This document shows positions 4,569-61,463 of a DNA stretch of 64,000 nt, in pieces. Location of the stretch: positions 370-64,369 of the IMG/VR virus record IMGVR_UViG_3300028585_000023. One strand, 5' to 3'. A program made the translations under genes and the position numbers. Position 1 is the stretch's first letter, and each line of letters starts with the position of its first letter. The stretch comes from a virus. Under the pieces are notes generated by a model that searched no databases, was not told the origin of the DNA, and was given only the letters and a program-made list of their open reading frames with translations.

Positions 4569-5051
4569 TTAAGTTGGATTGATGCTGCTGAAATGGGTGA
4601 TCGACTTAACGATCTGTTCTACAAACATGTCTAACTGAATAGGCATGTCAATTGGACGATGATCTTCAACGATCTTCAAACGTAAGTCATTAAACGCCTT
4701 AGGTTTGAGTGTCACGCCATCGCGTTCAACGATATTTGCCGATGGGTAACCGAATGGCCCAAACTCGCTACGCATGCGCTCGATGCATTCTTTGGTTGCT
4801 TCTGCTAATGAGCAATCAGGCCAGCCATTACTGAAGTCAGTTGGACCCTCGTCATAGGCGGTAATGATCGCGTTCCAGATAGCCAACATGATGTCTGGTG
4901 TGCCCTCAAGCAGACGTGCTGCATCGGTGTGGTACGTGTGATCGTATTTGGCCTGCAGATACAGACTTTCCAGCCGATCGATGATTGTCACGAGACCAAG
5001 CTTTAGCTCAGCAATGCCCGCGATGTCATCCCCTCCTTTTATACCAAACAT
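4569..5051 (-). CDS. Hypothetical protein
   Basis: 160 aa ORF in operon. Confidence 0.7.
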   Translation of the reverse strand: MFGIKGGDDIAGIAELKLGLVTIIDRLESLYLQAKYDHTYHTDAARLLEGTPDIMLAIWNAIITAYDEGPTDFSNGWPDCSLAEATKECIERMRSEFGPFGYPSANIVERDGVTLKPKAFNDLRLKIVEDHRPIDMPIQLDMFVEQIVKSITHFSSINPT

Positions 5052-5564: not shown

Positions 5565-5584
5565 GTAATGTAGGTTTAACTTTT
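5565..5584 (-). promoter_or_regulatory. Putative phage early promoter (AAAAGTTAAAC-CTACATTAC)
   Basis: Intergenic motif found at five sites; resembles the phiKZ early TATATTAC-type element. Confidence 0.65.
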
Positions 5585-5725: not shown

Positions 5726-6157
5726 TTATCCTCCATTTAAGTAAGTCACTGCAAACCAACCATTACCGTAGAAGCCTGCGGTATGGCGATCAAGTAATTG
5801 ACGTGTCTGCATGAAGTGGTTAACCCGCATAGATGACCATGACATATCCGACAAGGCGAACTGTTCATTTTGAATATCAGTCGGGACAAATACTCGGATG
5901 AACCGCAAGTCCATGTTTGGGAACTCAGCCTGGATTGCCATCTGTGCAGCGATTTCGTTCTCAGCGGCAATGACGCCCGTATAAGTACTGAACGGCACAT
6001 GTTGCCACTGCGTGGTTGTGTCACAGAGTTCACCTGCCCCGGTAGTCCAGTATGCCAGGATATTCGGGTTAGGGGGATACTGCAACGGCACTACAATGGT
6101 GTTGGGATGCTGCCATCCGCACCAGTACAACTGTAATGGATTTACAGGAATGAACAT
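5726..6157 (-). CDS. Hypothetical protein
   Basis: 143 aa ORF with GAGG SD. Confidence 0.7.
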   Translation of the reverse strand: MFIPVNPLQLYWCGWQHPNTIVVPLQYPPNPNILAYWTTGAGELCDTTTQWQHVPFSTYTGVIAAENEIAAQMAIQAEFPNMDLRFIRVFVPTDIQNEQFALSDMSWSSMRVNHFMQTRQLLDRHTAGFYGNGWFAVTYLNGG

Positions 6158-6878: not shown

Positions 6879-6967
6879 GGTATTTCCTCTTCTTTGTTTA
6901 GCCGACACTTTGTTTGGTCAGCGGGATATACAACTTCTTTATTTTGTCTACTTCTACAAATAGACAC

Positions 6968-6993
6968 AAAAAAGAAAGGGACCCGAAGGTCCC
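6968..6993 (-). terminator. Intrinsic terminator after the autotransporter gene
   Basis: GGGACC-TTCG-GGTCCC then TTTCTTTTTT. Confidence 0.88.
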
Positions 6994-7005
6994 TAACTTT
7001 ACAAC

Positions 7006-9204
7006 TTAGAAGCCGAAGCCGATACCGGCACCAGCGACAGCATCAGAATCGTTAGAGAAACCGACAGATGCCTTTACCTGTACGTTAGGACGGATGTTTG
7101 CACCCACGCCTACCGCCAGAGCAGTACGATCTTTGAACTGACCGATACCCGCACCTAAAGTCATTACCTGACCTGGGACGACCGGGATATTAGCCATCGC
7201 AGCGACTGAGGCAATGCCACTACGGTATTCTTTCTGATCGTCAGAACGGTTACGGTTCACTTCACCACGCAGATTACCAACTTGCTGATCAGTATAGCTC
7301 TTAGACTGCTGCAGGGTGCGAGCAGAAGAAGTATTGATGTTATTGTTGATGATCTGGTTGTTAGTGTTGTAGACGTCCTGGAACTGGTAGTAGTCGTTGC
7401 TCAGGTTAGAGATGTTCGTTTCATTGTTAGTGATACGCGTCTCGTGATTGTTAATCACTTTACCCTGATTGTTCACAACGGTCTGAGTCTCTTTGATGTC
7501 GGAGGTGTTCTTCGCGATATTAGACTCATTGGTGGTGATACGACCTTCATGGTTTGCGATCTGTGTAGTGTGCGTTGCAATCGTACCTTCCGCAGTAGTG
7601 ATGCGGTTGGTGTTAGACTGCGTCTGCTTCACGTTTTGTGTCAACACGTTATTAGTGTTGACCAGATCGTTACGGGTCTGCTGAATCTGCTGGGTATTGG
7701 ATGTGGTGCGGTTATCCAGATTCACGATGTCATTACCGTTTTTCTGACCGATACCCACAGCAACGTCCGCGGTGTTCTGCGCATTGATTGCTGTGTTCTT
7801 CGCATCCTGGCCGATGGCAACACCTGCGTTAGCAGTCTGCTGCGCATTATAGGCATCATTAATACCCTTCTGACCCAGACCGACTGCAACATCAGCAGTG
7901 TTCTGTGCGTTCACTGCTTTGTTGTAGCCTTCGTTCGCAACGTTACCAACGTTAACGATGTCGTTAGTGTTTTTGTCAACCTGCGACTGAACACCGTCTA
8001 CACGGTTATTGATGTTGGTACGATCTTTGGTCAGCTGATCATTGGTTTCACGCAGGCCACCTTCAACACCGTCTAAACGCACGGCATTGTTTTGTGAACG
8101 CGCATCCACCGCATTCAGATGATCACCCTGATCACGCAGTGTACCTTCGGCGGTATCCAGACGTGTTTCGGTGCGCCCGATACGCTCACCCGTTTCACTG
8201 AACTGTTGCTGTACCTGGTTGTTGACACCGGTCTGAGTTGCAATCGCACCGTCTACCTTGGTGTTCAGGTTACCCAGGTTGGTATTGGTTGTAGCCAGAC
8301 CAGTCTTCAGACCGCTGATATCTTTGCTGTTTTGTGCAGTTTTGCCTTCAACAGAAGTCAGACGACCATCGACAGATTTGTTCACACCCGCCTGTGCTTT
8401 GGTAGTTGCATCTACCTTCGCGCCCAGCGCATCAACTTTCAGATTTGCTACAGTACCCAGAACCACGCCAGCCGTACCCGTTGCTTGCGCAACATCAACA
8501 CGGTTACCCAGCGCTTTGCTATCTGCTTGTGCATTAGCAATCGCCGAATCCAGACGGGTGTTCAGAGCTTTGTCGCCAGCATCGATTTTGTCGTTCAACT
8601 GACCAGCAACTTTCACACCGGTGGCAGCCAGGTCATTGACCTTGCCATCGAGTGCATTGACTTTACCATCAACTGCCCCGATCGCCGCTGTCCCTGCGGC
8701 AGACAATGCGTCGACTTTGCTGTCCAGTGCGTTGGTGGCGCTAGCCGTGGTAGTGGACAGATTATCGATACGACCGCTCAATGCATCATCCGCGCTAACA
8801 CGCGCATCGATTTCACCGTTGAGTTTCGCACCCAGGTTGTTGATTGCAGCCGTGTTACCATAAGAGGTAGTCAGCGCGTTGTTAGCAGTAGCACGACCTT
8901 CGACAGCGATGTCAAATGCCTGGCCCGCTTTGATGTTGGTGTTGTTCAGTGCCGTGTTGGTTTTACCCAGCTCGCCATTGAAGTAACTGACCGACGTATC
9001 GATTTTGGTGTTAAGATTGTTCAGGCCGGTGTTCAACTGACCGATCTGCTGCGTGTGCAGCGTGGTGGTATTTTTCAGTGACGTGACGTCAGCTGTATTT
9101 TTGTTGACAGTGGTGTTTAAGATCCCCAGATCAAGATCGATCAGAGAAGCATTGGCCCCGGCGGTAAACAAAATAACAGAAATAGCAAGCGACTTTAATT
9201 TCAT
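7006..9204 (-). CDS. Trimeric autotransporter adhesin (YadA/Eib-like): Sec signal, long coiled-coil stalk, C-terminal YadA anchor
   Basis: Start MKLKSLAISVILFTAGANA at 9204; C-terminal GIASVAAMANIP...LGAGIGQF...ALAVGVG...VKASVGF...AGAGIGFGF ending in Phe; Asn-rich heptads such as NHETRITNNE. Confidence 0.88.
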   Translation of the reverse strand: MKLKSLAISVILFTAGANASLIDLDLGILNTTVNKNTADVTSLKNTTTLHTQQIGQLNTGLNNLNTKIDTSVSYFNGELGKTNTALNNTNIKAGQAFDIAVEGRATANNALTTSYGNTAAINNLGAKLNGEIDARVSADDALSGRIDNLSTTTASATNALDSKVDALSAAGTAAIGAVDGKVNALDGKVNDLAATGVKVAGQLNDKIDAGDKALNTRLDSAIANAQADSKALGNRVDVAQATGTAGVVLGTVANLKVDALGAKVDATTKAQAGVNKSVDGRLTSVEGKTAQNSKDISGLKTGLATTNTNLGNLNTKVDGAIATQTGVNNQVQQQFSETGERIGRTETRLDTAEGTLRDQGDHLNAVDARSQNNAVRLDGVEGGLRETNDQLTKDRTNINNRVDGVQSQVDKNTNDIVNVGNVANEGYNKAVNAQNTADVAVGLGQKGINDAYNAQQTANAGVAIGQDAKNTAINAQNTADVAVGIGQKNGNDIVNLDNRTTSNTQQIQQTRNDLVNTNNVLTQNVKQTQSNTNRITTAEGTIATHTTQIANHEGRITTNESNIAKNTSDIKETQTVVNNQGKVINNHETRITNNETNISNLSNDYYQFQDVYNTNNQIINNNINTSSARTLQQSKSYTDQQVGNLRGEVNRNRSDDQKEYRSGIASVAAMANIPVVPGQVMTLGAGIGQFKDRTALAVGVGANIRPNVQVKASVGFSNDSDAVAGAGIGFGF

Positions 9205-9288
9205 GGTCTTAATTCCTGAGAAGTATTGTTGGATATTGATTGACTGCACATGTGTAGTGATTCGATATTCCTTAGATTCACCACACCG

Positions 9289-9312
9289 GTAATATAGAAG
9301 TGAGAAATATTT
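9289..9312 (-). promoter_or_regulatory. Putative phage early promoter (CTATATTAC) upstream of the autotransporter
   Basis: Contains exact TATATTAC, about 85 nt before the ATG. Confidence 0.7.
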
Positions 9313-9328
9313 GATTCTGAATTAAGTC

Positions 9329-9354
9329 GGCATAAAGGGCCCCCGAAGGGACCC
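9329..9354 (-). terminator. Hairpin (UUCG loop) + TTTATGCC terminator
   Basis: GGGTCCC-TTCG-GGGGCCC then TTTATGCC. Confidence 0.82.
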
Positions 9355-9359
9355 GTGTG

Positions 9360-11261
9360 TTATTTTGCTTCTTTCTTGAGCTCAATGTAACGCAGTTCAG
9401 ACTTCGACCACTGTGCTTGGTTAACCTGAACCCGCACTTGCAGGAAGTCTCCTACAATCTTACCCTTCAGGATCAGGTCACCATCATTGGTTGCACCGAT
9501 CCCCGCCTTCTGTCCGATTGACCACTGTTCACTGATATCAGACACATTGGCCAGTGCCGCGACTTCAGCGTCAGCAACCGGAGCAACATCAGCACGGAAG
9601 AAGAACGACACCCCTTTCTCGAAGTGAGTGCTACCCGTTGCGGTAATGATAGGAATGACGTTACGGGTATATCCTTTCAACTGCACATAAAGAACAAAGC
9701 GTGAACCATCTTTGACGATCTTTGCAGCCAGAACAGGCGAGGAACCCGATGGCATGAATGTACCGCCAATTGCACCGTCTTTCTTGTACTGGACACGAAT
9801 CAGGGTATTACCGCCACCTTGACGTGTATCGTCGATATCGTTCAGTACCGCATTGGCAGAGAGGTAGTTGCCAGTGCCTACTAAATTGATATCGATCTGA
9901 TCACCTTCAGCCGGTGAGAAGAACTTACCAACACGGAACCATTTGGCCGTTGCGGCTGAGTTGTTCAGTTTGTTACGAGACATCAACGCACCGAACTCAA
10001 GGGAGCCGTCGGTGTAGATACCGTAGTTCTGGATATCAATACGACCACGTTCCCATTCAGACAGCCATTCTTGCAGATCTGGATCTGGTGAGTAATCGAT
10101 ACCCGAGCCTGACTGGAGATTACGCGCTGTCTCAACCAAACGAGAGTAGGAGGCTTTCAGTTTGGTTTTGCAATCTTCCATGGAGAAGCCAGTGATGACC
10201 CACTGACCATTGGAGATATCACCTGGGTTATCGGAGTGTTCAATCCAACCATTATAAATGAAGGACTGAGTACAACGTGGTAAGTTGAAGACTTTACCTA
10301 AACGACTACCCTGTACGTTGAAGTTAGAAAGTTCAACAGCCGTGGTGTGATCCCATACACCTTTCGCTTGACCGGACCAGGTTGCAGCGATGATATCGCC
10401 GGTACAATCAGATGCGTACCACTGATTCACGCGAGTATCGAGTGTGTCCAACAGACTGATACAAGTACCACCAATCTTTTCGAAGCGTACACAGCTCAGG
10501 TTAAAGAACTGACCACCTGGGATGCTGTTGTTGAAGAAGCCTTTCTTAATTGGTTTATCAACAGTGGAAGTACTGCGGACAATTAAGTTAGCCAATTCTA
10601 CTTTACGTGCTACCAGATCAATCATGAAGTTTTCATCAGTGTTCGACACGAGGATTGTCGAACTGTGATAACCAAAGTTGGTAGCATTGCCCGTAATACG
10701 AATGATGTTAAGTTCTTTGTTCGGTTTGAACTGCGATACAAAGAATGTACCCGCCGGGAAACGAATACCAACACCTTGCATCTTAGATACAGACCAGTTG
10801 TACATATTGGTCATTGCAGGGACGGCATCGGTCTTAGCATCTGGCACCGCTCCCCAATGGGTTACGTTCAGATCGGCCGGATCATTAATTACACGTTCCC
10901 AGTAGAAGCCATTGCCTGCAGCAATTGTACCGCCATCATCAGCACCTTTGCTTAAGTGACCAATAAAGTCACCGCCACCATAACAGGTACCGGTATTCCA
11001 GCCACGCAGAGAAATACGTGCACCTTCCATACGCGGTTTGGTTTTGCGTAATTCATCAAAGGATTGGATTTGCCCAATTAAGCACAGCGCGTCATTGGAC
11101 TTCAGCACATCAACACTCAGGAGATTGGTGAGCTGTTCAGTTAAATCACTTAACGGGAAATAAGACATTTCACCGCCGGTAATAGTGACAACCCGCGTAT
11201 CGGGTTTCGCGCTTGCAAGCAATCGTTGCAGGGGCGATAATACTTCGGCTGTAGCTGCCAT
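9360..11261 (-). CDS. amsF: AmsF/WceF-like exopolysaccharide-associated beta-helix protein (tailspike-like fold)
   Basis: GQIQSFDELR, DDGGTIA, GIRFPAGTFF, LDTLD, WDHTTAVELSNFN, LPRCTQS.I.NGWIEHS..PGDISNGQW, GIGATNDGDL match Erwinia AmsF as recalled; no twin-arginine signal. Confidence 0.82.
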   Translation of the reverse strand: MAATAEVLSPLQRLLASAKPDTRVVTITGGEMSYFPLSDLTEQLTNLLSVDVLKSNDALCLIGQIQSFDELRKTKPRMEGARISLRGWNTGTCYGGGDFIGHLSKGADDGGTIAAGNGFYWERVINDPADLNVTHWGAVPDAKTDAVPAMTNMYNWSVSKMQGVGIRFPAGTFFVSQFKPNKELNIIRITGNATNFGYHSSTILVSNTDENFMIDLVARKVELANLIVRSTSTVDKPIKKGFFNNSIPGGQFFNLSCVRFEKIGGTCISLLDTLDTRVNQWYASDCTGDIIAATWSGQAKGVWDHTTAVELSNFNVQGSRLGKVFNLPRCTQSFIYNGWIEHSDNPGDISNGQWVITGFSMEDCKTKLKASYSRLVETARNLQSGSGIDYSPDPDLQEWLSEWERGRIDIQNYGIYTDGSLEFGALMSRNKLNNSAATAKWFRVGKFFSPAEGDQIDINLVGTGNYLSANAVLNDIDDTRQGGGNTLIRVQYKKDGAIGGTFMPSGSSPVLAAKIVKDGSRFVLYVQLKGYTRNVIPIITATGSTHFEKGVSFFFRADVAPVADAEVAALANVSDISEQWSIGQKAGIGATNDGDLILKGKIVGDFLQVRVQVNQAQWSKSELRYIELKKEAK

Positions 11262-17727: not shown

Positions 17728-17748
17728 GTCATGTAGGTTTGAGATTTT
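17728..17748 (-). promoter_or_regulatory. Putative early promoter variant (AAAATCTCAAAC-CTACATGAC)
   Basis: One mismatch to CTACATTAC, similar upstream AAAA...AAAC. Confidence 0.55.
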
Positions 17749-17774
17749 CTGCAGTTAACTTTATTCGCTATATC

Positions 17775-17802
17775 GGCATAAAAGGAGGACCGAAGTCCTC
17801 CT
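17775..17802 (-). terminator. Hairpin (UUCG loop) + TTTTATGCC terminator
   Basis: AGGAGGAC-TTCG-GTCCTCCT then TTTATGCC. Confidence 0.87.
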
Positions 17803-22376: not shown

Positions 22377-22442
22377 GAATATCTCTCTATTTATATTTGG
22401 CTAAATGATTGGACAATGGATGTCGGAAAGAACAAAAAAAAT

Positions 22443-22468
22443 GGCATAAAGGGAGGCCGAAGCCCCCC
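22443..22468 (-). terminator. Hairpin (UUCG loop) + TTTATGCC terminator
   Basis: GGGGGGC-TTCG-GCCTCCC then TTTATGCC. Confidence 0.82.
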
Positions 22469-22474
22469 ATCTGA

Positions 22475-36042: not shown

Positions 36043-36100
36043 TTCCTTTAAATAGGTTATCTGTTAAAAGATGATTCAACTTTGTTCGTAAAAACAAGAC

Positions 36101-36128
36101 GGCATAAGAGAGCCCCGAAGGACTCTCT
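36101..36128 (-). terminator. Hairpin (UUCG loop) + TTATGCC terminator
   Basis: AGAGAGTCC-TTCG-GGGCTCTCT then TATGCC. Confidence 0.82.
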
Positions 36129-36456: not shown

Positions 36457-36478
36457 GTAATGTAGGCTTAAAGAATTC
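36457..36478 (-). promoter_or_regulatory. Putative early promoter (CTACATTAC)
   Basis: Same motif as at 5565 and 44880. Confidence 0.65.
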
Positions 36479-42343: not shown

Positions 42344-42366
42344 AAAAGGGTCCTTATAAAAATGAC

Positions 42367-42396
42367 GGCATAGCAGGAGAAGCCTTCGCTTCTCCT
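42367..42396 (-). terminator. Hairpin + TATGCC terminator
   Basis: AGGAGAAGC-GAAG-GCTTCTCCT then GCTATGCC. Confidence 0.75.
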
Positions 42397-44879: not shown

Positions 44880-44902
44880 GTAATGTAGGAATAAAATGAT
44901 TT
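44880..44902 (-). promoter_or_regulatory. Putative early promoter (AAATCATTTTATTC-CTACATTAC)
   Basis: Same motif family. Confidence 0.65.
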
Positions 44903-50405: not shown

Positions 50406-50409
50406 AGAC

Positions 50410-50445
50410 GGCATAGAGGAGAGGGCAAACGCCCTCTCCTTATGC
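50410..50445. terminator. Bidirectional terminator with TATGC on both strands
   Basis: GGCATAG-AGGAGAGGGC-AAAC-GCCCTCTCCT-TATGC between convergent genes. Confidence 0.85.
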
Positions 50446-50450
50446 TGATC

Positions 50451-53400
50451 TTAGTTACGCCAAGCGAAGTTACCTGCGCCTGATGGCACCCCAGTGGAGA
50501 TTGGGATGGCCGAACCAATGCGATTCGCTGATAACTCAAAAGTCTCTACACGCACTTTCTTGTTAACGCTGATCGATTGGATTTGAGTGCTGTTGGTAAC
50601 AATACTGCCGATATACATTAGAGTCATTGACGGGGCCTGTGCCTGGGTCGTGATGAGATACGACACTTGCTCGTCAACCAGCTGCACGTACAGATAGAAC
50701 GTCGTGTTTGCTGGATTGGCTTGGATGCTACGCAGATCGATGTTACCGGCCGGAAGGGTGTATTCGTTACCCGCTAAGAACACTTGGGTCGGTGCCGTAA
50801 AGTAAACGAGGTAACCCTGCTCAACCTGTTGCGCAGCCAGGATAAACTTCCCACGAGAAGTCCAGTTAATGAACTCTTGATAGGTCGTTGCCATGGAATC
50901 CATGACCATGACTGCAGTGGCGTTATTACGGTTGGTCGCATAATCCATTACACAAATACCAGATCCCGGTACAACTAATGGCGTTGGGTTATCAGCCGTT
51001 GGGTAATACCCGTGGTTAAACCGTTTCACCGTACTGTCTTCGATGGTCCCAGTACCTGCACGAATTGCCGCATACCACACATAGCTGTAAATACCGCCAT
51101 ACGTTTGATGGTTAGGTGGGCAACCAATTCCTAAGAGGTAATCACCTGCCGCAGTCTTGTAGATATTTAAACCACCTTGACCGGCGAGCTCCATGGTAAC
51201 GCCCGATGGTTGCTGTTCTTCAATGCGTCTGTCGATTACACGTTTGATGGTGTAACCTGTTACACTGCCTGAACGAGATCCAGTGTAGTTAAGTTCAACT
51301 AACGCAAATGCAGCACGGTAAGCAAGACCATCATCACGCAGGACTTCACCGTTACACACCATGATCAATGGCACCGCCGTATCTTGCGGAACATAGATCA
51401 GCCCCATGTTCAGTGTTGGGGCTTTACCGAGCACTTGGGTAATGGCCGCTTTCGCCAACGCGTTCATCTCTGCTTTATCAAAACTGAACGAACCCGTCAT
51501 GTTCAGATTAGCATCAATGTCAGTGCAACCAACCCAACTGGTTGACTTATCGTTATCTTCCCAGATTACAGAAGGTGACGAAATGATGTTACCTCCACTG
51601 TCCACTTGGGTAATTACGTGTGCAAAGCGATAACGATCGATCGCTGTCCGTGCAGCCGGGATTTCAGAACGATTGCCATTAGGCGCGAAGCCATTGATTG
51701 TACGACCATCCAGTAGTTTATACGGGAAGTTTGCATTACCTGTTATGACAACACGTTTTGTGGTGCCGTAGGTGTAATAACCGACTTCCTTATACTTCGT
51801 ACCGGTTAACAACAATCCAAATCCTCGGAGCAGCTGAGGTTTCATGAAGTTGTTGGTCAACGCACTGCCTGTTACCAATGGATCGTTAACCTGGGTAATC
51901 AACCGAGTGACCCGACTCCGCTCACGCATTGCATCGAAGCGGGAGACAAAGTTAAGGATCTGACCTTTACCGTACAACGGGTTCTCGTCTGGCTGATTAC
52001 CTGACATACGGGTTAGCAAATAACCACGGTTAGTAACAAGCGTGTTATGATGTCGGTTACCGCCCATCATATCCATGCCAGTTGCTGTCGTTGAACCTGT
52101 CTGCAAAGGTGAACTGATCGGCGCACTGTATTGGTTGCCAGAAATGGTGATTGGCCCAGGGCTATCTTCCACCACGGATGTTTTGGCAGTCGTATCGATC
52201 AAAATAGAGAAGGCAATTGGTGCTAGACCGGTCCCGCCTGCTTTGGCTTGTGAATAGGTAGTGTGGTGATAATTCACACGTACCTGATTCGGGTTGGCTG
52301 GATTCACCGCTGATTGCAAACGACGTTGGGCATTCTGTATGTTGATCGCGAACAACTGTTTATTGGTAACATAAACGTACGGGTTGTTGTTAGCGTCGGA
52401 GCTTGACCACTGCGCTGCAATCAAGACGTCAGCATTCGTAATACTGCGGCCATACACATCTTTACATGACCAATTCGTAACCGGTTCTAAAGTGACAGTA
52501 CCACCGGCCTGAATTGCCGAGATAGCCACACGCCAAACTACCAGCCTAGCTGAATCAGTACGTTCCGCATTACCGTTCGCATCTGGGGTAACCGTCACGA
52601 AATCTTCAAGTCCGCCAAAGATATAAACGTAGGTACCGACAATTGCTGCGGTCATAAAGCGGATATGGTAGTTCCCGTTAGCCATACCGGCAGCTTTATA
52701 GTAAGCGGTGTAATGTTTACTGACATCAAAGGTACCGTTAGTCAGTGAGATAAAACGATCGACACTGCTTGATCCTTTAATCGCACCCAGCAACACTTCA
52801 GAGTCATTGTTGTAGATGTCAGAACAGTATGTTCCAGCCGGAAGGTTAGGTGGCACGTATTTAAAGTTTGTACGAATTGGACTGGTGCTGTCAATGCGAT
52901 CTTCAGCAGATGGCAGATAGAAGTAATACAAACCTTCTGAGGTACCCGTTGCGCCGTAACGCAGACCCACCATGGTGCCGTCATCTTCAATGATCATCGG
53001 ACCACAAGAGTTACCTGACAACTGACCAGAACCTTCAAACGAACCTGAGATATCCGGTGGTAAAAAGGACAATGAACCGAACGCTGAAATCGGGTTAATC
53101 CCCTGGTGATGCAAAGATGAACCGAAGTCACCAAATACCTTCGACGCTAAAGCATTATATCCCGGCGGGGTGATAAACAGATTGTCATACTCGCCTTCAC
53201 CTGCTTGAGCAACTGTCGCGGTCTTAAAGTTATCCACCAGACCAAAACCAATTTGAGTCGCGTTGACTTTATGGATATTGGTGCGGTTACTCGCATGGGC
53301 GTTCAGGTTAGACTGGGCTTCGGTGACCAACATCTCAACCGTGTTGGTAAAGTTGGTCATCACCCCCGCAGCTAAGTCGTATTGCGAATAACGTGCGTTT

Positions 53401-53480
53401 TGTAATTTCCAGGTGAGTGCTTCAATCGAGGCATAAAACGAACCCCAACTACCCGGATCAACCGTCAGGTTGTCGCTCAT
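50451..53480 (-). CDS. Tail fibre/baseplate protein (phiKZ gp131-like family)
   Basis: Start MSDNLT at 53480 (AAGGAG SD); C-terminal ...YLYVQL...GSAIPISTG.P module shared with the next two genes. Confidence 0.75.
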   Translation of the reverse strand: MSDNLTVDPGSWGSFYASIEALTWKLQNARYSQYDLAAGVMTNFTNTVEMLVTEAQSNLNAHASNRTNIHKVNATQIGFGLVDNFKTATVAQAGEGEYDNLFITPPGYNALASKVFGDFGSSLHHQGINPISAFGSLSFLPPDISGSFEGSGQLSGNSCGPMIIEDDGTMVGLRYGATGTSEGLYYFYLPSAEDRIDSTSPIRTNFKYVPPNLPAGTYCSDIYNNDSEVLLGAIKGSSSVDRFISLTNGTFDVSKHYTAYYKAAGMANGNYHIRFMTAAIVGTYVYIFGGLEDFVTVTPDANGNAERTDSARLVVWRVAISAIQAGGTVTLEPVTNWSCKDVYGRSITNADVLIAAQWSSSDANNNPYVYVTNKQLFAINIQNAQRRLQSAVNPANPNQVRVNYHHTTYSQAKAGGTGLAPIAFSILIDTTAKTSVVEDSPGPITISGNQYSAPISSPLQTGSTTATGMDMMGGNRHHNTLVTNRGYLLTRMSGNQPDENPLYGKGQILNFVSRFDAMRERSRVTRLITQVNDPLVTGSALTNNFMKPQLLRGFGLLLTGTKYKEVGYYTYGTTKRVVITGNANFPYKLLDGRTINGFAPNGNRSEIPAARTAIDRYRFAHVITQVDSGGNIISSPSVIWEDNDKSTSWVGCTDIDANLNMTGSFSFDKAEMNALAKAAITQVLGKAPTLNMGLIYVPQDTAVPLIMVCNGEVLRDDGLAYRAAFALVELNYTGSRSGSVTGYTIKRVIDRRIEEQQPSGVTMELAGQGGLNIYKTAAGDYLLGIGCPPNHQTYGGIYSYVWYAAIRAGTGTIEDSTVKRFNHGYYPTADNPTPLVVPGSGICVMDYATNRNNATAVMVMDSMATTYQEFINWTSRGKFILAAQQVEQGYLVYFTAPTQVFLAGNEYTLPAGNIDLRSIQANPANTTFYLYVQLVDEQVSYLITTQAQAPSMTLMYIGSIVTNSTQIQSISVNKKVRVETFELSANRIGSAIPISTGVPSGAGNFAWRN

Positions 53481-53496
53481 GACAACTCCTTTCAAA

Positions 53497-53520
53497 ATAA
53501 AAGGAGGGGTTTCCCCCTCC
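53497..53520 (-). terminator. Intrinsic terminator between tail paralogues
   Basis: GGAGGGG-GAAA-CCCCTCC then TTTTATTTT. Confidence 0.8.
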
Positions 53521-53525
53521 CGACA

Positions 53526-56500
53526 TTACGTCTGACTCCAGTTACCCGTTTGTTGCGGCAGTCCCGTCGACACAGGAATAGATGAACCTGCTTTGATTGC
53601 AGAGATCTGATACTTATTGATCCCTGAACGCTTCGTGATGTTGATCGAGTTGATCTGTGAAGTGTTCGTTGCAACCGTCCCGATAAACATACGGGTCGTT
53701 TCAGCAGTTAATTCCGTAGCCGAAATGGTGTACTTCGCTGTTGTCGCATCCACAACCTCAATGTAAACATAATAGGTTGTGCTTGCTGGGTTAGCTTTTA
53801 TCGTACGCAGGTCAATGCTGGTAATTGGAATGGTGTATTCACGACCACCCAGGATGATTGGGATAGGTTCTGCAAAATACAGAATCCAACCTTGCTCTAC
53901 AGTTTGTGATAACAACACTGAGGTCCCGTTGCCCGGAATGGTCCATTGGCGAATCGTATCAAAGTTCTCACCTTGTGCGGCTAACACAATGGCACACGGG
54001 CCTACTGCTGATTGCGCACTTGGCGTAACCGGGACAGTATAGTTGGTGTCCGAATAAGTAACAAACAAACCTTTACCCGGAAGTGCAAAAGGGGTGTTTG
54101 ATAACAGATCGACATACGGTGAGACAAAGTACTGGTTTGACGGATTGCCTGAGATGCGTCCATTCGTCATCTTCAGATACACTAACGGCAGGTTGTTAGC
54201 AGGACCCACGGTGTATGGGCAATAGAAACCACCCATGGCAACGATGTATTCACCACCGACTTTATACGTCAGCATACCAAACGTCGTCAGGATACGAGAA
54301 ATATCCGTTGTACCGACAGACTGAGGCTTGCTGATAATATCATCGAGGTTAGCTGTCCAGCCATTTAACACACCGTCACGTGCACCGCCGTAAGACACGG
54401 TAGCGATGGCTGTGATGGTATCGGTAATGCCGTTGGCCTGCGCCGGTGTGAAGCCTACCACCTTAAGCATCAGTGACATTCCGCCATCCGTTGGGACAAA
54501 CAGTATGCAGCGATACTTAGCCGCAGTGATACCCAGCTGGTTAAGTACCCGTTGGCCTTGAGCACGCAGATAGTTCACATCGGTACTGATCGCACCTGAC
54601 GTGGTCAACGTAGGATCAATATTTGCAGGACCAGTTGGTGCATCATCAGAGATTGCGCGACAATGCGTAACAACCGACGCTCCATTGATCTCAGTGATGA
54701 TCTCACGACTAGGGCGATCCACTGTGGCTCTAACTCGATCGTTAGAAGGCTGGAAACCCTGAACATTACCGAGGCCAATCAGCTTATACTGGAAATCACC
54801 ATTACCCACGAGAGGCTGAGAAGCAAAATAAGTATTTGTTCCATCAAACGCCCAGAAGCCCAATCGGTTGTTCGGGAAGAGAATCGGACATCGCAGGTTA
54901 CCTTTCGCTTCGGATCCGTAGGAAGTACCGTCACCAATAGTGCGGAACAGGACGTTGGTGTAAGCCGCTGGATTACGCCAGTACGTATCGGCATCAACAA
55001 AGTTTGGGATCTGCTGAATATCGATGCGCATTCCGACGTTTGACGCCTGCTGACGACTGGTACAAATTGAGAAGCCTTTCTTTGTAATCAGTCGACTACC
55101 GTGGTAATCGCCGCTCAGTGCAGCAGTCCCGTCATTAACACCACGCAGTTTAAAGTAGTTGAGGTTAGAACCATTGGTTACCACCGTCATCTTCAACGTA
55201 CTGCTTGTGTCATCGACCACGGTAAACGGGTTCATGGTATCGGCAGGTCTGGCGGTCTTGGCATTAACATCAATAATAAAGCGAATGGGGAACACTGAAA
55301 TATTAGAGTTGTTACGCCCGTCGACGTTAATGGTGAAATCCACTAACATTGTCAAGGTGCCGTCACTGTTCGCCACCATCTTACCGTAACCGCCTGGCCA
55401 TGAGCGGTACTGTGCTTTGGCGTATTGATTGCCGTTATACTGCACCAGGACGTGCTGGTTAGAGCGTCCGATTACCTGATCACAGATCTGCATACTGCGG
55501 GCAGCAGTACGGACTTGACCGAGGAACGTAGTTGCCCAGCCTGTGATCTGTGTAAACGTAACCGCAGCGCCAGCGATAATATCCGCAACGTTGATATACC
55601 CCAGGTAGATCTGTGGGATCGCGTTGTAAGAGATCGCCCCGCCGGCTTCCATGGTTGTGGCAATGTTCGGGTTCTGATGAATCACGTAGATCCGCGAACC
55701 GACCATACACAACTGCGTCCACGACGGGCTGAACTCTTGTGTTGAACCATCGTCCATGGTGAAGAACGCGTTACTGATCTGGGCGCAGTTATGTTTGGTA
55801 CTATCCAGTGTGCCGTTGGTCAGGGCAATCCAGTATTTGTAATCACTGGTTGCCGGCAGAGCAGCCTTGTTGTACATGATACCGGCGATCACATCACCCT
55901 GGCAGTCAAACAAACGTGCCGGGATATATGCCTGGTCTAAACCAGATGGCGTATATTTGTTGTTGGTGTTGGTGACCGTAAAGGTATTGATGTTACGGTG
56001 AATGTTAGTGACATAATCGTAATACAACGCGATCGATTCGCCGTTCGTACCAGGACGAAGACGAATATACGTACCGTCATTCTCAACCACCTGAGCGTAA
56101 TGGTCATGCGCATCTACCATCGACGCCCCTTCAAACGAACCGATGATACCCGGTTGTAAGAAGTTCAGGTTACCAAACCGTGTAACAGGCAGGTTGCCCT
56201 GATGTACTAAGTTTGAAGAATACCCTTGCAGTGCGTTGGCAAGAATGTCCTGCGCACCTTTTACCGTCAGACGTAGATCAGGTCGCAAACCTTCAACAGC
56301 TTGAATGCTATCAGCGGTCGCCAGGTTCTGTAGTTTTGCGATACCAAAGGTTTTAGCGGTATCGGCATGTGGATTGCCGTCTTCAGTGGAATGCGTCAGG
56401 ATTTCACCGTTGATGCTTGCCTGTAGATCTTTGATCTGGTTGAGTACAACGGCAACCTTGTTGGTGAACCCTTCGTAGTTCAGGTTCTCGCCACGCAAGA

Positions 56501-57017
56501 TAAGACCATCAGCCACCCAGGTGCTGAACGCGATGCGGTCTTCCCAGCCATAGGTATCCATGAACATGTCATGGGTGTGATACGACGGCGGGTATGTCGC
56601 AGGACGGTTATTGATATTATCCCACAGGACATCACGCTCATCATTGATGATTGCCCACAACAAATTCTCAAGCGTAATTGAATTGAAAGTAAACAATCCA
56701 CCTACAACTTGATACTCGACAAAGATATCCCCAACGACCGTTTCATTGAGAATCTTGATAAAACAAGTACATGAACGCCCAGTCTTCTTAGAGGCTTCTG
56801 GGAAGTGATGTACAGGTTGGAAATCCACCCAAGGTTCAAGGTAGCTCCCATTTGGTAAACGTACCTTTACTGAGTCAGAAAAGAACGGACCTTCCAATGC
56901 GGCAATGATCTTGTTCTTAGGACCGGGGGTTAAGGTATGTCGTTCACCCCCAATCAAGTTCTGCGGATCTTTACCCGTAACATCAAATTTATATTTCGTA
57001 AGAATCGGGGTATTCAT
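53526..57017 (-). CDS. Tail fibre/baseplate protein (phiKZ gp131-like family)
   Basis: Start MNTPIL at 57017 (AGGAG SD); shares N- and C-terminal modules with neighbours. Confidence 0.78.
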   Translation of the reverse strand: MNTPILTKYKFDVTGKDPQNLIGGERHTLTPGPKNKIIAALEGPFFSDSVKVRLPNGSYLEPWVDFQPVHHFPEASKKTGRSCTCFIKILNETVVGDIFVEYQVVGGLFTFNSITLENLLWAIINDERDVLWDNINNRPATYPPSYHTHDMFMDTYGWEDRIAFSTWVADGLILRGENLNYEGFTNKVAVVLNQIKDLQASINGEILTHSTEDGNPHADTAKTFGIAKLQNLATADSIQAVEGLRPDLRLTVKGAQDILANALQGYSSNLVHQGNLPVTRFGNLNFLQPGIIGSFEGASMVDAHDHYAQVVENDGTYIRLRPGTNGESIALYYDYVTNIHRNINTFTVTNTNNKYTPSGLDQAYIPARLFDCQGDVIAGIMYNKAALPATSDYKYWIALTNGTLDSTKHNCAQISNAFFTMDDGSTQEFSPSWTQLCMVGSRIYVIHQNPNIATTMEAGGAISYNAIPQIYLGYINVADIIAGAAVTFTQITGWATTFLGQVRTAARSMQICDQVIGRSNQHVLVQYNGNQYAKAQYRSWPGGYGKMVANSDGTLTMLVDFTINVDGRNNSNISVFPIRFIIDVNAKTARPADTMNPFTVVDDTSSTLKMTVVTNGSNLNYFKLRGVNDGTAALSGDYHGSRLITKKGFSICTSRQQASNVGMRIDIQQIPNFVDADTYWRNPAAYTNVLFRTIGDGTSYGSEAKGNLRCPILFPNNRLGFWAFDGTNTYFASQPLVGNGDFQYKLIGLGNVQGFQPSNDRVRATVDRPSREIITEINGASVVTHCRAISDDAPTGPANIDPTLTTSGAISTDVNYLRAQGQRVLNQLGITAAKYRCILFVPTDGGMSLMLKVVGFTPAQANGITDTITAIATVSYGGARDGVLNGWTANLDDIISKPQSVGTTDISRILTTFGMLTYKVGGEYIVAMGGFYCPYTVGPANNLPLVYLKMTNGRISGNPSNQYFVSPYVDLLSNTPFALPGKGLFVTYSDTNYTVPVTPSAQSAVGPCAIVLAAQGENFDTIRQWTIPGNGTSVLLSQTVEQGWILYFAEPIPIILGGREYTIPITSIDLRTIKANPASTTYYVYIEVVDATTAKYTISATELTAETTRMFIGTVATNTSQINSINITKRSGINKYQISAIKAGSSIPVSTGLPQQTGNWSQT

Positions 57018-57069
57018 TGGATATCTCCTGGGATATCGGAAAGTGGGTGAGGGCATCACCCACTCACCC

Positions 57070-58332
57070 TTACCAGTTCAAATTCGCAGACTGAGATGGC
57101 AGACCCGCAGTTGCAGCAATCGCAGAACCAATCTTCGTTTCAGATACACGTGTGGTACCCAGACCAGAGATCTTGTTGATCGTGGCTGAAGTAATTGCGC
57201 TCGCACCACAAACGATACGACCCACGTTTACATACGTCGTTGTTTCGGGTGACGCCGCTTCTGCTACTTCATACGCAGCCTTACCATTACGAACGCGCAC
57301 ATAAAGGAAGAGAGTTTTATTCGCCGGTGCAGATACGAAGTCAGTCAGTTTAATACTGCTCGCCGGTAATACCCATTCGCGTGACGCCATGATAGCTGGC
57401 ACAACCGCGGTGATGTTCAGTACAAATCCATTAATCGTAAATGGAATCGCTGTTGTGCTTAGATCACCAAACTGCAACATTGGTACCCAGCCCACGTGCA
57501 CGATCGAATTGTCGTTCTTAAGCAGGGTATCGTAAGCTGCACCTGTTGCTGTCAAGGGGGACAGGAACTTATTCGACGCCGTGCCTGCAATCGCCTCGGC
57601 TAATGACGCCATGTCAAAGTCATCGACATTATTAAGTCCAACCAACATGCTCTTAGTGTCAACATGTGGATTGGTGTAATTACGACGGTGAGCAATGAAG
57701 GTGTTATAGATCGCGAGCAGGCGCACGGCGGTTGCTGCAAAAGAACTGTCCAACGAATCGATGTAGGACTGAATCGACGGTAAATGACTGATGTTCTGCA
57801 AGCAAACGTGGAAGCGTGCCATTGACTCAGTCATCGGCGCCCAGTTGTAAGTATCCTTTATATCCAGCGTGTGCGGAGATGGCGGGAACTTGTCTGGCTT
57901 ATCAAAGATATCATCCCAGTAGTACTTACGGTTATCGTTTGCAATTGCATCTAAGATATCCGTAAGGTCACGGTTAGAGATCCCTGATGGCAAGCCAACA
58001 GCCTGGTACGACGCATTCACCCGTCCTTTGAGATTATCATTAAGGATCATGATAAACGCTGCTGTAGACTTACCTGTCATTTCATCGAGGTTGAGTTCAG
58101 GGCGGTTATAAGGATAAACAGGTTTGTAGTCCGTCCATTTGGTCAGAGTATTACCGTTGTCATCCACTAACACCAAAGACTCAGAATAGAACGCACCATG
58201 CTTTAATACAATCGCACGGTTAGTCAGCTCATCTGGGATCTCGATGACATCATCGGTAATGTGGTTATCCTGACTGACACCTGTGATGTCGAATTCAAGT
58301 CGCACCACATCGGGAAACAGAGTCCCGGCCAT
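57070..58332 (-). CDS. Virion structural protein, same paralogue family without the large central domain
   Basis: Shared N-terminal, NPH..T and C-terminal modules. Confidence 0.75.
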   Translation of the reverse strand: MAGTLFPDVVRLEFDITGVSQDNHITDDVIEIPDELTNRAIVLKHGAFYSESLVLVDDNGNTLTKWTDYKPVYPYNRPELNLDEMTGKSTAAFIMILNDNLKGRVNASYQAVGLPSGISNRDLTDILDAIANDNRKYYWDDIFDKPDKFPPSPHTLDIKDTYNWAPMTESMARFHVCLQNISHLPSIQSYIDSLDSSFAATAVRLLAIYNTFIAHRRNYTNPHVDTKSMLVGLNNVDDFDMASLAEAIAGTASNKFLSPLTATGAAYDTLLKNDNSIVHVGWVPMLQFGDLSTTAIPFTINGFVLNITAVVPAIMASREWVLPASSIKLTDFVSAPANKTLFLYVRVRNGKAAYEVAEAASPETTTYVNVGRIVCGASAITSATINKISGLGTTRVSETKIGSAIAATAGLPSQSANLNW

Positions 58333-61410: not shown

Positions 61411-61463
61411 CGGCATAAAACAAGACAGAGGGCCTCCGCAAGGAAGCTCTCTGTCTTTATGCC
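61411..61463. terminator. Bidirectional terminator with TATGCC on both strands
   Basis: GGCATAAAAC-AAGACAGAGGGC...GCTCTCTGTCTT-TATGCC between convergent genes. Confidence 0.82.

Follow-up and report, generated by a model that had tools for sequence, protein, structure and literature searches.

A predicted headless trimeric autotransporter encoded by a cassette at a resident promoter in a relative of lytic Erwinia jumbo phages

Introduction

Trimeric autotransporters encoded by phages include EibA and EibD of Escherichia coli prophages, which are expressed from lysogens and contain a YadA-like head and neck. Here, we describe a gene of this class on a 64,000-nucleotide stretch of viral DNA (positions 370 to 64,369 of the IMG/VR record IMGVR_UViG_3300028585_000023, hereafter termed the window), whose gene order corresponds to that of the Agricanvirus jumbo phages, which infect Erwinia amylovora. 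The encoded protein of 732 residues shares 34% identity with the Eib proteins in its anchor (E 9e-4) but, unlike these, has no head, and it is found in a phage group whose complete representative G001 contains neither an integrase nor a resolvase.

No fewer than 86 phage records, the majority of them from virulent groups, contain genes with a YadA anchor. These records include Kuravirus, N4-like, T4-like, Asteriusvirus and Aeromonas jumbo phages and the temperate P-EibA, and the genes have been discussed as putative virulence or auxiliary metabolic genes (PMC3728262, PMC10654107). An earlier interpretation of the window from its letters alone (the sequence-only reading) had considered such adhesins as known morons of temperate phages and set the present lytic phage against these, a contrast that is not new in view of the predominantly virulent records and their discussion in print. 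A comparative review of jumbo phages makes no mention of such genes, and no functional test of a lytic-phage autotransporter was found in the literature searched. While the kind of gene is already annotated, the new aspects of the present locus are the apparent capture of a promoter where its transcription begins, the motifs for promoters and terminators in this phage group and the exchange of the module between lineages.

Described proteins that resemble the window protein fall into several sets. Yoloswag gp261 (AQT28733.1) and pEa_SNUABM_5 gp273 (QQO90415.1), both annotated as 'putative autoagglutinating adhesin', combine the same signal, coiled coil and YadA anchor. The former is 45% identical over 97% of the length, and both share 64–70% identity in the C-terminal half and little in the distal half, with the N-terminal 340 residues being largely unrelated. 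Their genes are located in non-structural blocks and are followed by a homologous hairpin, but they belong to phages of another genus and occupy another insertion site than in the Agricanvirus-like window. The 'STEC autoagglutinating adhesin' of Bue1 and phiEa2809 aligns over the last ~170–180 residues only, at ~68%. The 'agglutinating adhesin' gp119 of phiEco32 and small YadA-anchor genes of Kuravirus, the N4-like phages FSL SP-058/076, T4-like phages and Asteriusvirus illustrate that the anchor occurs in other lytic phages too. Such genes sit among early or non-structural genes, in the case of gp119 within a block of small non-structural ones, but their products contain only 130–270 residues, of which the last ~100 align at ~40%. 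Finally, in its architecture the protein recalls NadA of Neisseria meningitidis, a chromosomally encoded and essentially headless protein that consists nearly entirely of coiled coil followed by a YadA-type anchor and that binds human receptors, although no sequence match to NadA was obtained in any search.

Results and discussion

Architecture of the encoded protein

The gene is defined by a single long open reading frame (ORF) on the minus strand with an ATG at position 9204, whose product starts with MKLKSLAIS, contains neither Cys nor Trp and is rich in Asn (13.3%), Ala and Thr (Table 1). A longer ORF initiating with a GTG at 9249 is unlikely, because the in-frame stretch ahead of the ATG shifts frame in L005, a relative of 88% identity, and because related contigs carry single-nucleotide indels between the two positions. 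No DNA tandem repeats of note were found within the gene. Matches of the product to NCBIfam entries (SMC, Rad50 and similar), which are far below the respective cut-offs, and to Tropomyosin and P10 of Pfam were dismissed as coiled-coil noise.

Table 1. Coordinates of the autotransporter gene, its parts and its surroundings in the window.
Feature	Position	Strand	Evidence
Downstream neighbour, gp80 homologue, 237 residues	6165-6878	-	phrog_11154; 50% identical to Simmy50 gp80; leader aligns with Simmy50
Inserted cassette, ~2.3 kb (leader, ORF, terminator; GTG microhomology at both junctions)	6968-9281	-	Flank alignments to the Simmy50 gp79-gp80 spacer
Cassette-borne intrinsic terminator, 7-bp UUCG-loop hairpin (6977-6994), then T-run	6968-6994	-	-16.1 kcal/mol, z -3.6
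Trimeric autotransporter gene, 732 residues and stop	7006-9204	-	Pfam YadA_anchor; phrog_17426 'adhesin', E 2e-50
YadA-type membrane anchor, residues 681-732, four beta-strands, GxxFxF beta-signal at end	7009-7164	-	Pfam; AlphaFold2; Foldseek
Passenger, residues 20 to ~660, predicted coiled-coil stalk, headless	7225-9147	-	AlphaFold2 monomer; trimer model; Pfam
Stalk segment resembling the P22 tail needle gp26 coiled coil, residues 499-581	7462-7710	-	phmmer against PDB chain 4lin_A, E 2.8e-7; may be coiled-coil composition bias
Three 21-residue repeats, residues 432-494	7723-7911	-	Nearly invariant across phage lineages
Sec signal peptide, residues 1-19	9148-9204	-	MKLK, hydrophobic core, ANA; read from sequence
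Ribosome-binding site AGGAA in cassette 5' leader	9213-9217	-	
Resident promoter-like motif CTATATTAC after AT-rich stretch; predicted start G ~9282, six nucleotides downstream	9289-9297	-	Same position upstream of gp80 in Simmy50
Resident terminator of depolymerase gene, 7-bp UUCG-loop hairpin (9337-9354), then TTTATGCCG (9328-9336)	9328-9354	-	-14.9 kcal/mol; also in Simmy50
Upstream neighbour, exopolysaccharide (EPS) depolymerase homologue, 633 residues, resident backbone gene	9360-11261	-	phrog_4250 'EPS depolymerase', E 1e-223; 61% identical to Simmy50 gp79

The N-terminus displays the features of a Sec signal, with Lys at positions 2 and 4, a hydrophobic core of 12 residues and the sequence ANA, and cleavage is predicted by rule after residue 19. 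Equivalent signals are found in all three full-length homologues, which are the proteins of L005 and of L006, a phage of a different phiKZ-like lineage, and Yoloswag gp261. In a full-length monomer model obtained with AlphaFold2 (AF2), the signal is followed by a helix extending over residues 28–651 with three short breaks and then by four to five strands. The mean predicted local distance difference test (pLDDT) score of this model is low (59) and it served for secondary structure alone. The ~630 residues of predicted coiled coil would, at 1.5 Å per residue, amount to a stalk of roughly 90 nm. No head or stalk family of Pfam (Hep_Hag/YadA_head, neck) was matched at E-values up to 0.1, and the passenger is predicted to be helical throughout. 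A simple hydrophobic-periodicity scan was uninformative.

The anchor at the C-terminus is recognized by the Pfam family YadA_anchor (PF03895), which matches residues 681–732 with an E-value of 3e-10 and 40.5 bits, compared to a gathering cut-off of 22.7 bits, and which scores 46.2 bits in a six-frame search. The protein terminates in GIGFGF, and the last residue is F or W in 21 of 21 aligned homologues. A separate AF2 model of residues 600–732, calculated with 21 homologues, contains a helix followed by four strands with a pLDDT of 84–90 in the anchor. When this model was compared with the PDB by Foldseek, the anchors of Hia, AtaA and YadA made up the five best matches (E 1.7e-6 to 7.8e-4). 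The target TM-scores for Hia (3EMO, 2GR7), AtaA (9VNJ) and YadA (2LME), the last of which is also detected by phmmer (E 4e-4), are in a range of 0.62–0.83. The sequence identity to these anchors is only 22–25%, and in contrast to the window protein the bacterial passengers have head domains.

The likely oligomeric state was addressed in a model of three copies of residues 420–732, which reached a score of 0.80, whereas the best of three controls scored 0.00. Among proteins solved as pairs of one chain, 20 of 30 attained this value, as did 1 of 23 among those with a single-chain structure. Contacts agree between runs by at least 76% at a pLDDT of at least 88, and they recur at heptad spacing over residues 489–669. 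Since similar complexes of Hia, YadA and AtaA have already been solved, this outcome indicates likeness to known structures rather than proof and may reflect what the predictor has learned from them. The model supports a predicted homotrimer with a 12-stranded barrel and a trimeric coiled-coil passenger. Judged from its sequence and the predicted structures, the protein is a genuine type Vc trimeric autotransporter composed of a signal, a coiled-coil stalk and a YadA anchor, without a head.

Much of this architecture had been anticipated by the sequence-only reading, which had described a Sec signal, a coiled-coil stalk of about 650 residues, the lack of a recognizable YadA head and a full anchor ending in Phe, and the two checks that it had proposed for the anchor and the trimer, by HMMER and AlphaFold respectively, gave the results described above. 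In the details of the stalk it was only partly correct. The pattern NAQNTADVAVG.GQ is indeed present twice, at residues 432 and 474, but the repeat unit spans 21 instead of 14 residues and occurs in three copies starting at residues 432, 453 and 474. Asn-containing heptads had been noted as well, and the protein is rich in Asn, but motifs with Asn at position d are no commoner than in composition-preserving shuffles.

A different assignment is implied by RefSeq and PHROGs, which call relatives of the protein 'tail protein' and which, in case of phrog_17426, list the family in the category 'tail'. The protein would then be a fibre or another tail component of the virion instead of residing in the outer membrane. 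In line with this assignment, part of the stalk aligns with the trimeric coiled-coil repeats of the P22 tail needle gp26 (4LIN, 2POH), the adjoining gene encodes a tailspike-type EPS depolymerase, and 'YadA domain' proteins of cyanophages occur in virions (PMC9146016). However, gp26 as a part of the virion has neither a signal peptide nor a membrane anchor and the match may reflect a shared coiled-coil composition, whereas all homologues of the window protein contain a cleavable Sec signal and a full β-barrel anchor with the β-signal for the β-barrel assembly machinery (BAM), which is at odds with the assembly of virions in the cytoplasm. Moreover, in Yoloswag, pEa_SNUABM_5 and phiEco32 the gene is embedded among non-structural genes, Agricanviruses build their virions without it and the label 'tail' is apparently derived from the word 'adhesin'. 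We thus regard a role in the virion as highly improbable and treat the protein as a putative outer membrane autotransporter in the following.

Insertion of the cassette at a resident promoter

The organization of the locus becomes evident in a comparison with the Agricanvirus Simmy50, where the genes of the EPS depolymerase (gp79) and of gp80 are adjacent and separated by a spacer of ~150 bp. This spacer contains, in this order, a hairpin followed by TTTATGCCG, an AT-rich stretch, CTATATTAC, the triplet GTG and the gp80 leader. In the window, the counterpart of this spacer is found in two pieces, its beginning up to the GTG located 5' of the autotransporter gene and its remainder, from the GTG to the start codon of gp80, located 3' of the cassette terminator, while YadA_anchor has no match anywhere in the whole Simmy50 genome. 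The alignment of both flanks to a continuous spacer indicates that a cassette of ~2.3 kb has entered the spacer behind the resident promoter and ahead of the gp80 leader. By this comparison, its point of entry coincides with the site where transcription from the gp80 promoter is predicted to start, so that the promoter was split from its leader. Homologous hairpins are found at the same distance past the stop codon in Yoloswag and pEa_SNUABM_5, and the alignments suggest that the terminator travels with the gene and that the promoter does not.

The cassette thus shares with morons the position of an extra gene between otherwise adjacent genes and the possession of its own terminator, but it has no promoter of its own, and its relatives do not contain the lysogeny genes required for expression from a prophage. 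For the same reason, as the promoter is resident and only the terminator came with the cassette, it does not constitute the self-contained unit that had been proposed, since it uses the promoter of gp80, which is present in Simmy50 without the gene. The terminators that had been placed on both of its sides are found as predicted hairpins of –14.9 and –16.1 kcal/mol, but the upstream one is resident and located just outside the interval that had been assigned to the unit.

As a side aspect of this arrangement, the cassette terminator now separates gp80 from its former promoter, and the minus strand at 6895–6976 shows no promoter motif that could replace it, so that expression of gp80 may depend on read-through.

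Transcription signals around the cassette

The sequence-only reading had assigned to the gene an early-type promoter of its own, defined by the exact string TATATTAC. This string is found once in the window compared to 1.77 matches expected by chance and is for that reason uninformative if taken alone. A full-text literature search for it retrieved unrelated primers only, and a scan for sigma-70 promoters detected fewer sites than in shuffled sequences. As judged from the comparison of genomes, TATATTAC is part of the resident gp80 promoter and meaningful only as a member of a family of motifs with the consensus CTAYATTAC. This consensus is found 17 times in forward and never in reverse orientation in G001 and 15 times in forward and never in reverse orientation in Simmy50, compared to 1–4 matches of a control pattern. 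In the window, five of the six coding-strand matches of the relaxed pattern TAYATKAC are intergenic, although intergenic DNA accounts for only 6.3% of its length. All 17 sites in G001 are preceded by an AT-rich stretch and followed by a G at +7, six nucleotides past the motif, which is also the case for the site in the window. Sites of this type are located on the minus strand of the window at 5565–5573, 9289–9297, 17728–17735, 36457–36465 and 44880–44888.

A comparable organization was described for early promoters recognized by the virion RNA polymerase of phiKZ-related phages, which contain an AT-rich element near –10, start six nucleotides downstream and occur in tens of copies per genome (PMC5312081, PMC7598289). 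The layout of the start nucleotide was defined in AR9, phiKZ and phiR1-37 (PMC5312081), with the early consensus of AR9 being AAATATATATTAT-(6N)-G (PMC5312081, PMC7598289). The layout CTAYATTAC-N6-G matches these promoters both in its recurrence on the coding strand and in its start nucleotide. Together with the phiKZ-type terminator found upstream, this correspondence makes early transcription from the CTATATTAC-N6-G promoter a reasonable inference, which by analogy we consider somewhat more probable than transcription at another stage. The proposal of an early-type promoter is in this way retained in the form of a real and strand-specific motif family with the layout of early promoters, but not as a property of the cassette or as an enrichment of the exact string.

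The upstream terminator, with its hairpin followed by TTATGCCG, matches a motif that is conserved in phiKZ, where a hairpin precedes TTATKYYGT (PMC10914365). A GC-rich hairpin directly followed by (T)TTATGCC(G/A) is found in about 14 copies on the coding minus strand of the window, with examples at 9328–9354, 17774–17800, 22442–22470, 36100–36125, 42366–42390, 50409–50435 and 61411–61440. This element contains TATG, the core of phiKZ late promoters, and might mark both the end of one transcript and the start of the next. For the annotation of Agricanvirus-like phages, these observations provide rules concerning a promoter with the layout CTAYATTAC-N6-G, a terminator motif of the phiKZ type and the entry of the cassette precisely where transcription starts.

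Phage background, selection and exchange of the gene

The window is part of a 66-kb fragment of an uncultured phage with an estimated completeness of 24%, which may originate from a leaf-litter metagenome, the sole run containing the whole stretch. Besides Simmy50, its syntenic relatives include Ea35-70, RAY and other Agricanviruses, with ~77% nucleotide identity where aligned. Agricanviruses contain no lysogeny genes and form clear plaques (PMC6690015), and RAY builds a phage nucleus and completes its cycle in ~120 min (PMC11724907). The same locus is present in G001, a complete relative of 287 kb with terminal repeats. Three further studies provide contigs (283 kb, 183 kb and 21 kb) that carry it at ~90% identity. 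The kinship to Agricanviruses and the lack of integrase and resolvase genes in G001 make the assignment as lytic jumbo phage, which had already been made from the window alone, well supported, and a phage nucleus is by analogy probably formed as well.

The autotransporter gene displays a ratio of nonsynonymous to synonymous substitution rates (dN/dS) of 0.09 in comparison to L005 over 728 codons, in the range of the neighbouring genes (0.08–0.12), and six or more related genomes, obtained in separate studies, have kept an undisrupted reading frame. By this measure, the gene is under purifying selection. The sole length change observed is an in-frame duplication of 63 nucleotides, corresponding to 21 residues or three heptads, in L005 and the contigs of runs X3 and X7 (at 7697–7747 in window coordinates). 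Two alleles of the anchor are in circulation. The first is found in the window, in the 283-kb contig of run X8 and in the unrelated phage L006, the second accompanies the duplication in L005 and in the X3 and X7 contigs. The anchor of the window (7009–7250) differs by one residue from that of L006, for which a neighbouring protein indicates the Ralstonia phages RP12 and RP31 as nearest relatives (43% identity), whereas the anchor of the close relative L005 is divergent, with a dN of 0.26. This distribution argues that anchor alleles are swapped by recombination among related genomes.

Beyond this group, homologues at 45–70% identity are found in Yoloswag, pEa_SNUABM_5, Bue1 and phiEa2809, and no fewer than five lineages of Erwinia phages that are unrelated to each other have kept the gene. 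In the bacterial family of Erwinia, 44 of 151 sampled genomes contain matches, of which the best six share the anchor alone at 30–41% identity. A whole-protein pattern scan of 185,579 bacterial species genomes found no relative, and a search with the N-terminal passenger (residues 20–430) retrieved only three weak ones. Because the host-family genomes share just the anchor and at lower identity than the phage homologues, the adhesin family appears to circulate among phages and not to have been taken recently from the sampled hosts.

An accessory gene that moves in this way could also persist as a hitch-hiking mobile module in a permissive location, where it confers no benefit in the lytic cycle. 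Such a location might be found in the stretch downstream of the depolymerase gene, which looks like a hotspot of accessory genes, as two further small genes on the minus strand at 5726–6157 and 4569–5051 (143 and 160 residues), which are kept in G001 at 91–92% identity, have no match in the syntenic 25-kb locus of Simmy50. Cultured agricanviruses manage without the cassette, and the recombination of anchor alleles would be compatible with a mobile module too. Still, we consider a mere hitch-hiker improbable in light of the low dN/dS over 728 codons, the preserved frame with its single in-frame length change and the retention in unrelated Erwinia phage lineages.

Putative role on the infected cell

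The explanation that we favour overall, if tentatively, is that of a type Vc autotransporter encoded by an accessory cassette in a lytic jumbo phage, which provides an adhesive fibre on the cell surface. Transcription would start early at the captured CTATATTAC-N6-G promoter and the protein would be translated in the cytoplasm, outside the phage nucleus. After Sec-dependent export across the inner membrane, three chains would be inserted by the BAM of the host to form the 12-stranded barrel, from which a headless coiled-coil fibre would extend at the surface of the host throughout a long latent period, as found in RAY. Display of the fibre on the surface of the infected cell appears likely. 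Adhesion is the activity of nearly all characterized autotransporter adhesins, and it is for this reason that we commit to an adhesive role, although, resting on this analogy, the proposal that the fibre renders the cell adhesive or aggregative is held as somewhat less likely than not, in contrast to its display. An adhesive fibre would attach the cell to neighbouring cells, to matrix or to plant debris, so that it bursts amid susceptible hosts. The sequence-only reading had suggested an aggregation of cells, a masking of receptors against superinfection or an anchoring on plant surfaces, three roles that, like early expression, are putative.

Several observations weigh against this proposal. 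The window is an uncultured fragment from a presumed leaf-litter source, and its host is consequently known by inference from relatives. In the literature searched, no expression, localization or phenotype data were found for any lytic-phage autotransporter. In YadA and Eib, ligands are bound by the head domain, which the window protein does not contain. The distal half is strongly divergent between phages of the same host, although similarity would be expected if these bound a common ligand on host or plant, and homotypic aggregation would require both cells to be infected. Finally, predicted early promoters can be silent, as observed for g057 of AR9 (PMC5312081), and the early class is assigned here by analogy only.

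Some of these features would be better accounted for if the displayed fibres acted as a shield, which blocks competing or superinfecting phages during the latent period of two hours or masks receptors on debris. For the T5 protein Llp, masking of receptors on debris has been proposed to spare the progeny after lysis. The conservation of the membrane-proximal stalk and the anchor across unrelated Erwinia phages in combination with a variable distal half fits a steric role better than the binding of a specific ligand, as does the lack of a head, an early-type promoter suits exclusion and the latent period of relatives is long (PMC11724907). Conversely, within the lineage purifying selection acts strongly on the distal half (dN/dS 0.05–0.09). 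An autotransporter that blocks phage adsorption was not found in the literature searched, nor do we know of any. In balance, a shield appears rather unlikely, and we continue to prefer an adhesive fibre.

The anchor itself offers another explanation, since minimal versions of it exist as short YadA-anchor proteins in other lytic phages and it alone may thus be the selected part. Loading of the BAM and the outer membrane could perturb the envelope and thereby aid lysis, the release of vesicles or the shut-off of the host, without a functional fibre. This is difficult to reconcile with ~630 stalk residues that are held under purifying selection, an early-type promoter is a poor fit for a role in lysis and no lysis genes are located nearby, which leaves a perturbation of the envelope as a very unlikely alternative to the display of an adhesive fibre.

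More generally, autotransporter fibres may be handed on horizontally as a module that serves a range of unrelated lytic phages to alter the surface of their host early in the cycle, before it bursts, either to exclude competitors or to glue the cell to further hosts. We view this generalization as doubtful at present. To our knowledge, lytic phages are usually thought to alter the host surface only by small exclusion proteins. If true, the module would represent a class of lytic-cycle functions without prior experimental description, for which the long version in an Erwinia phage, located at a resident early-type promoter, would offer a clean test case. The locus raises the question of what value a surface fibre of 732 residues that is under purifying selection has for a cell that lyses within about two hours. 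The answer could be relevant to how phages spread in biofilms and on plant surfaces, to how they compete with each other and to how phage cocktails against fire blight are designed, as several of the candidate phages carry such genes.

Neighbouring genes

The product of the EPS depolymerase gene upstream of the cassette shows no obvious export signal, and homologues from the bacteria Erwinia endophytica and Kalamiella share just 40–42% identity with it. The homologue in RAY clears EPS of Pantoea vagans (PMC6690015). At a distance from the cassette, three consecutive large paralogues (1014, 1177 and 420 residues) are encoded on the minus strand at 50451–58332, all of which match phrog_3573 and phrog_2163, annotated as 'virion structural protein'.

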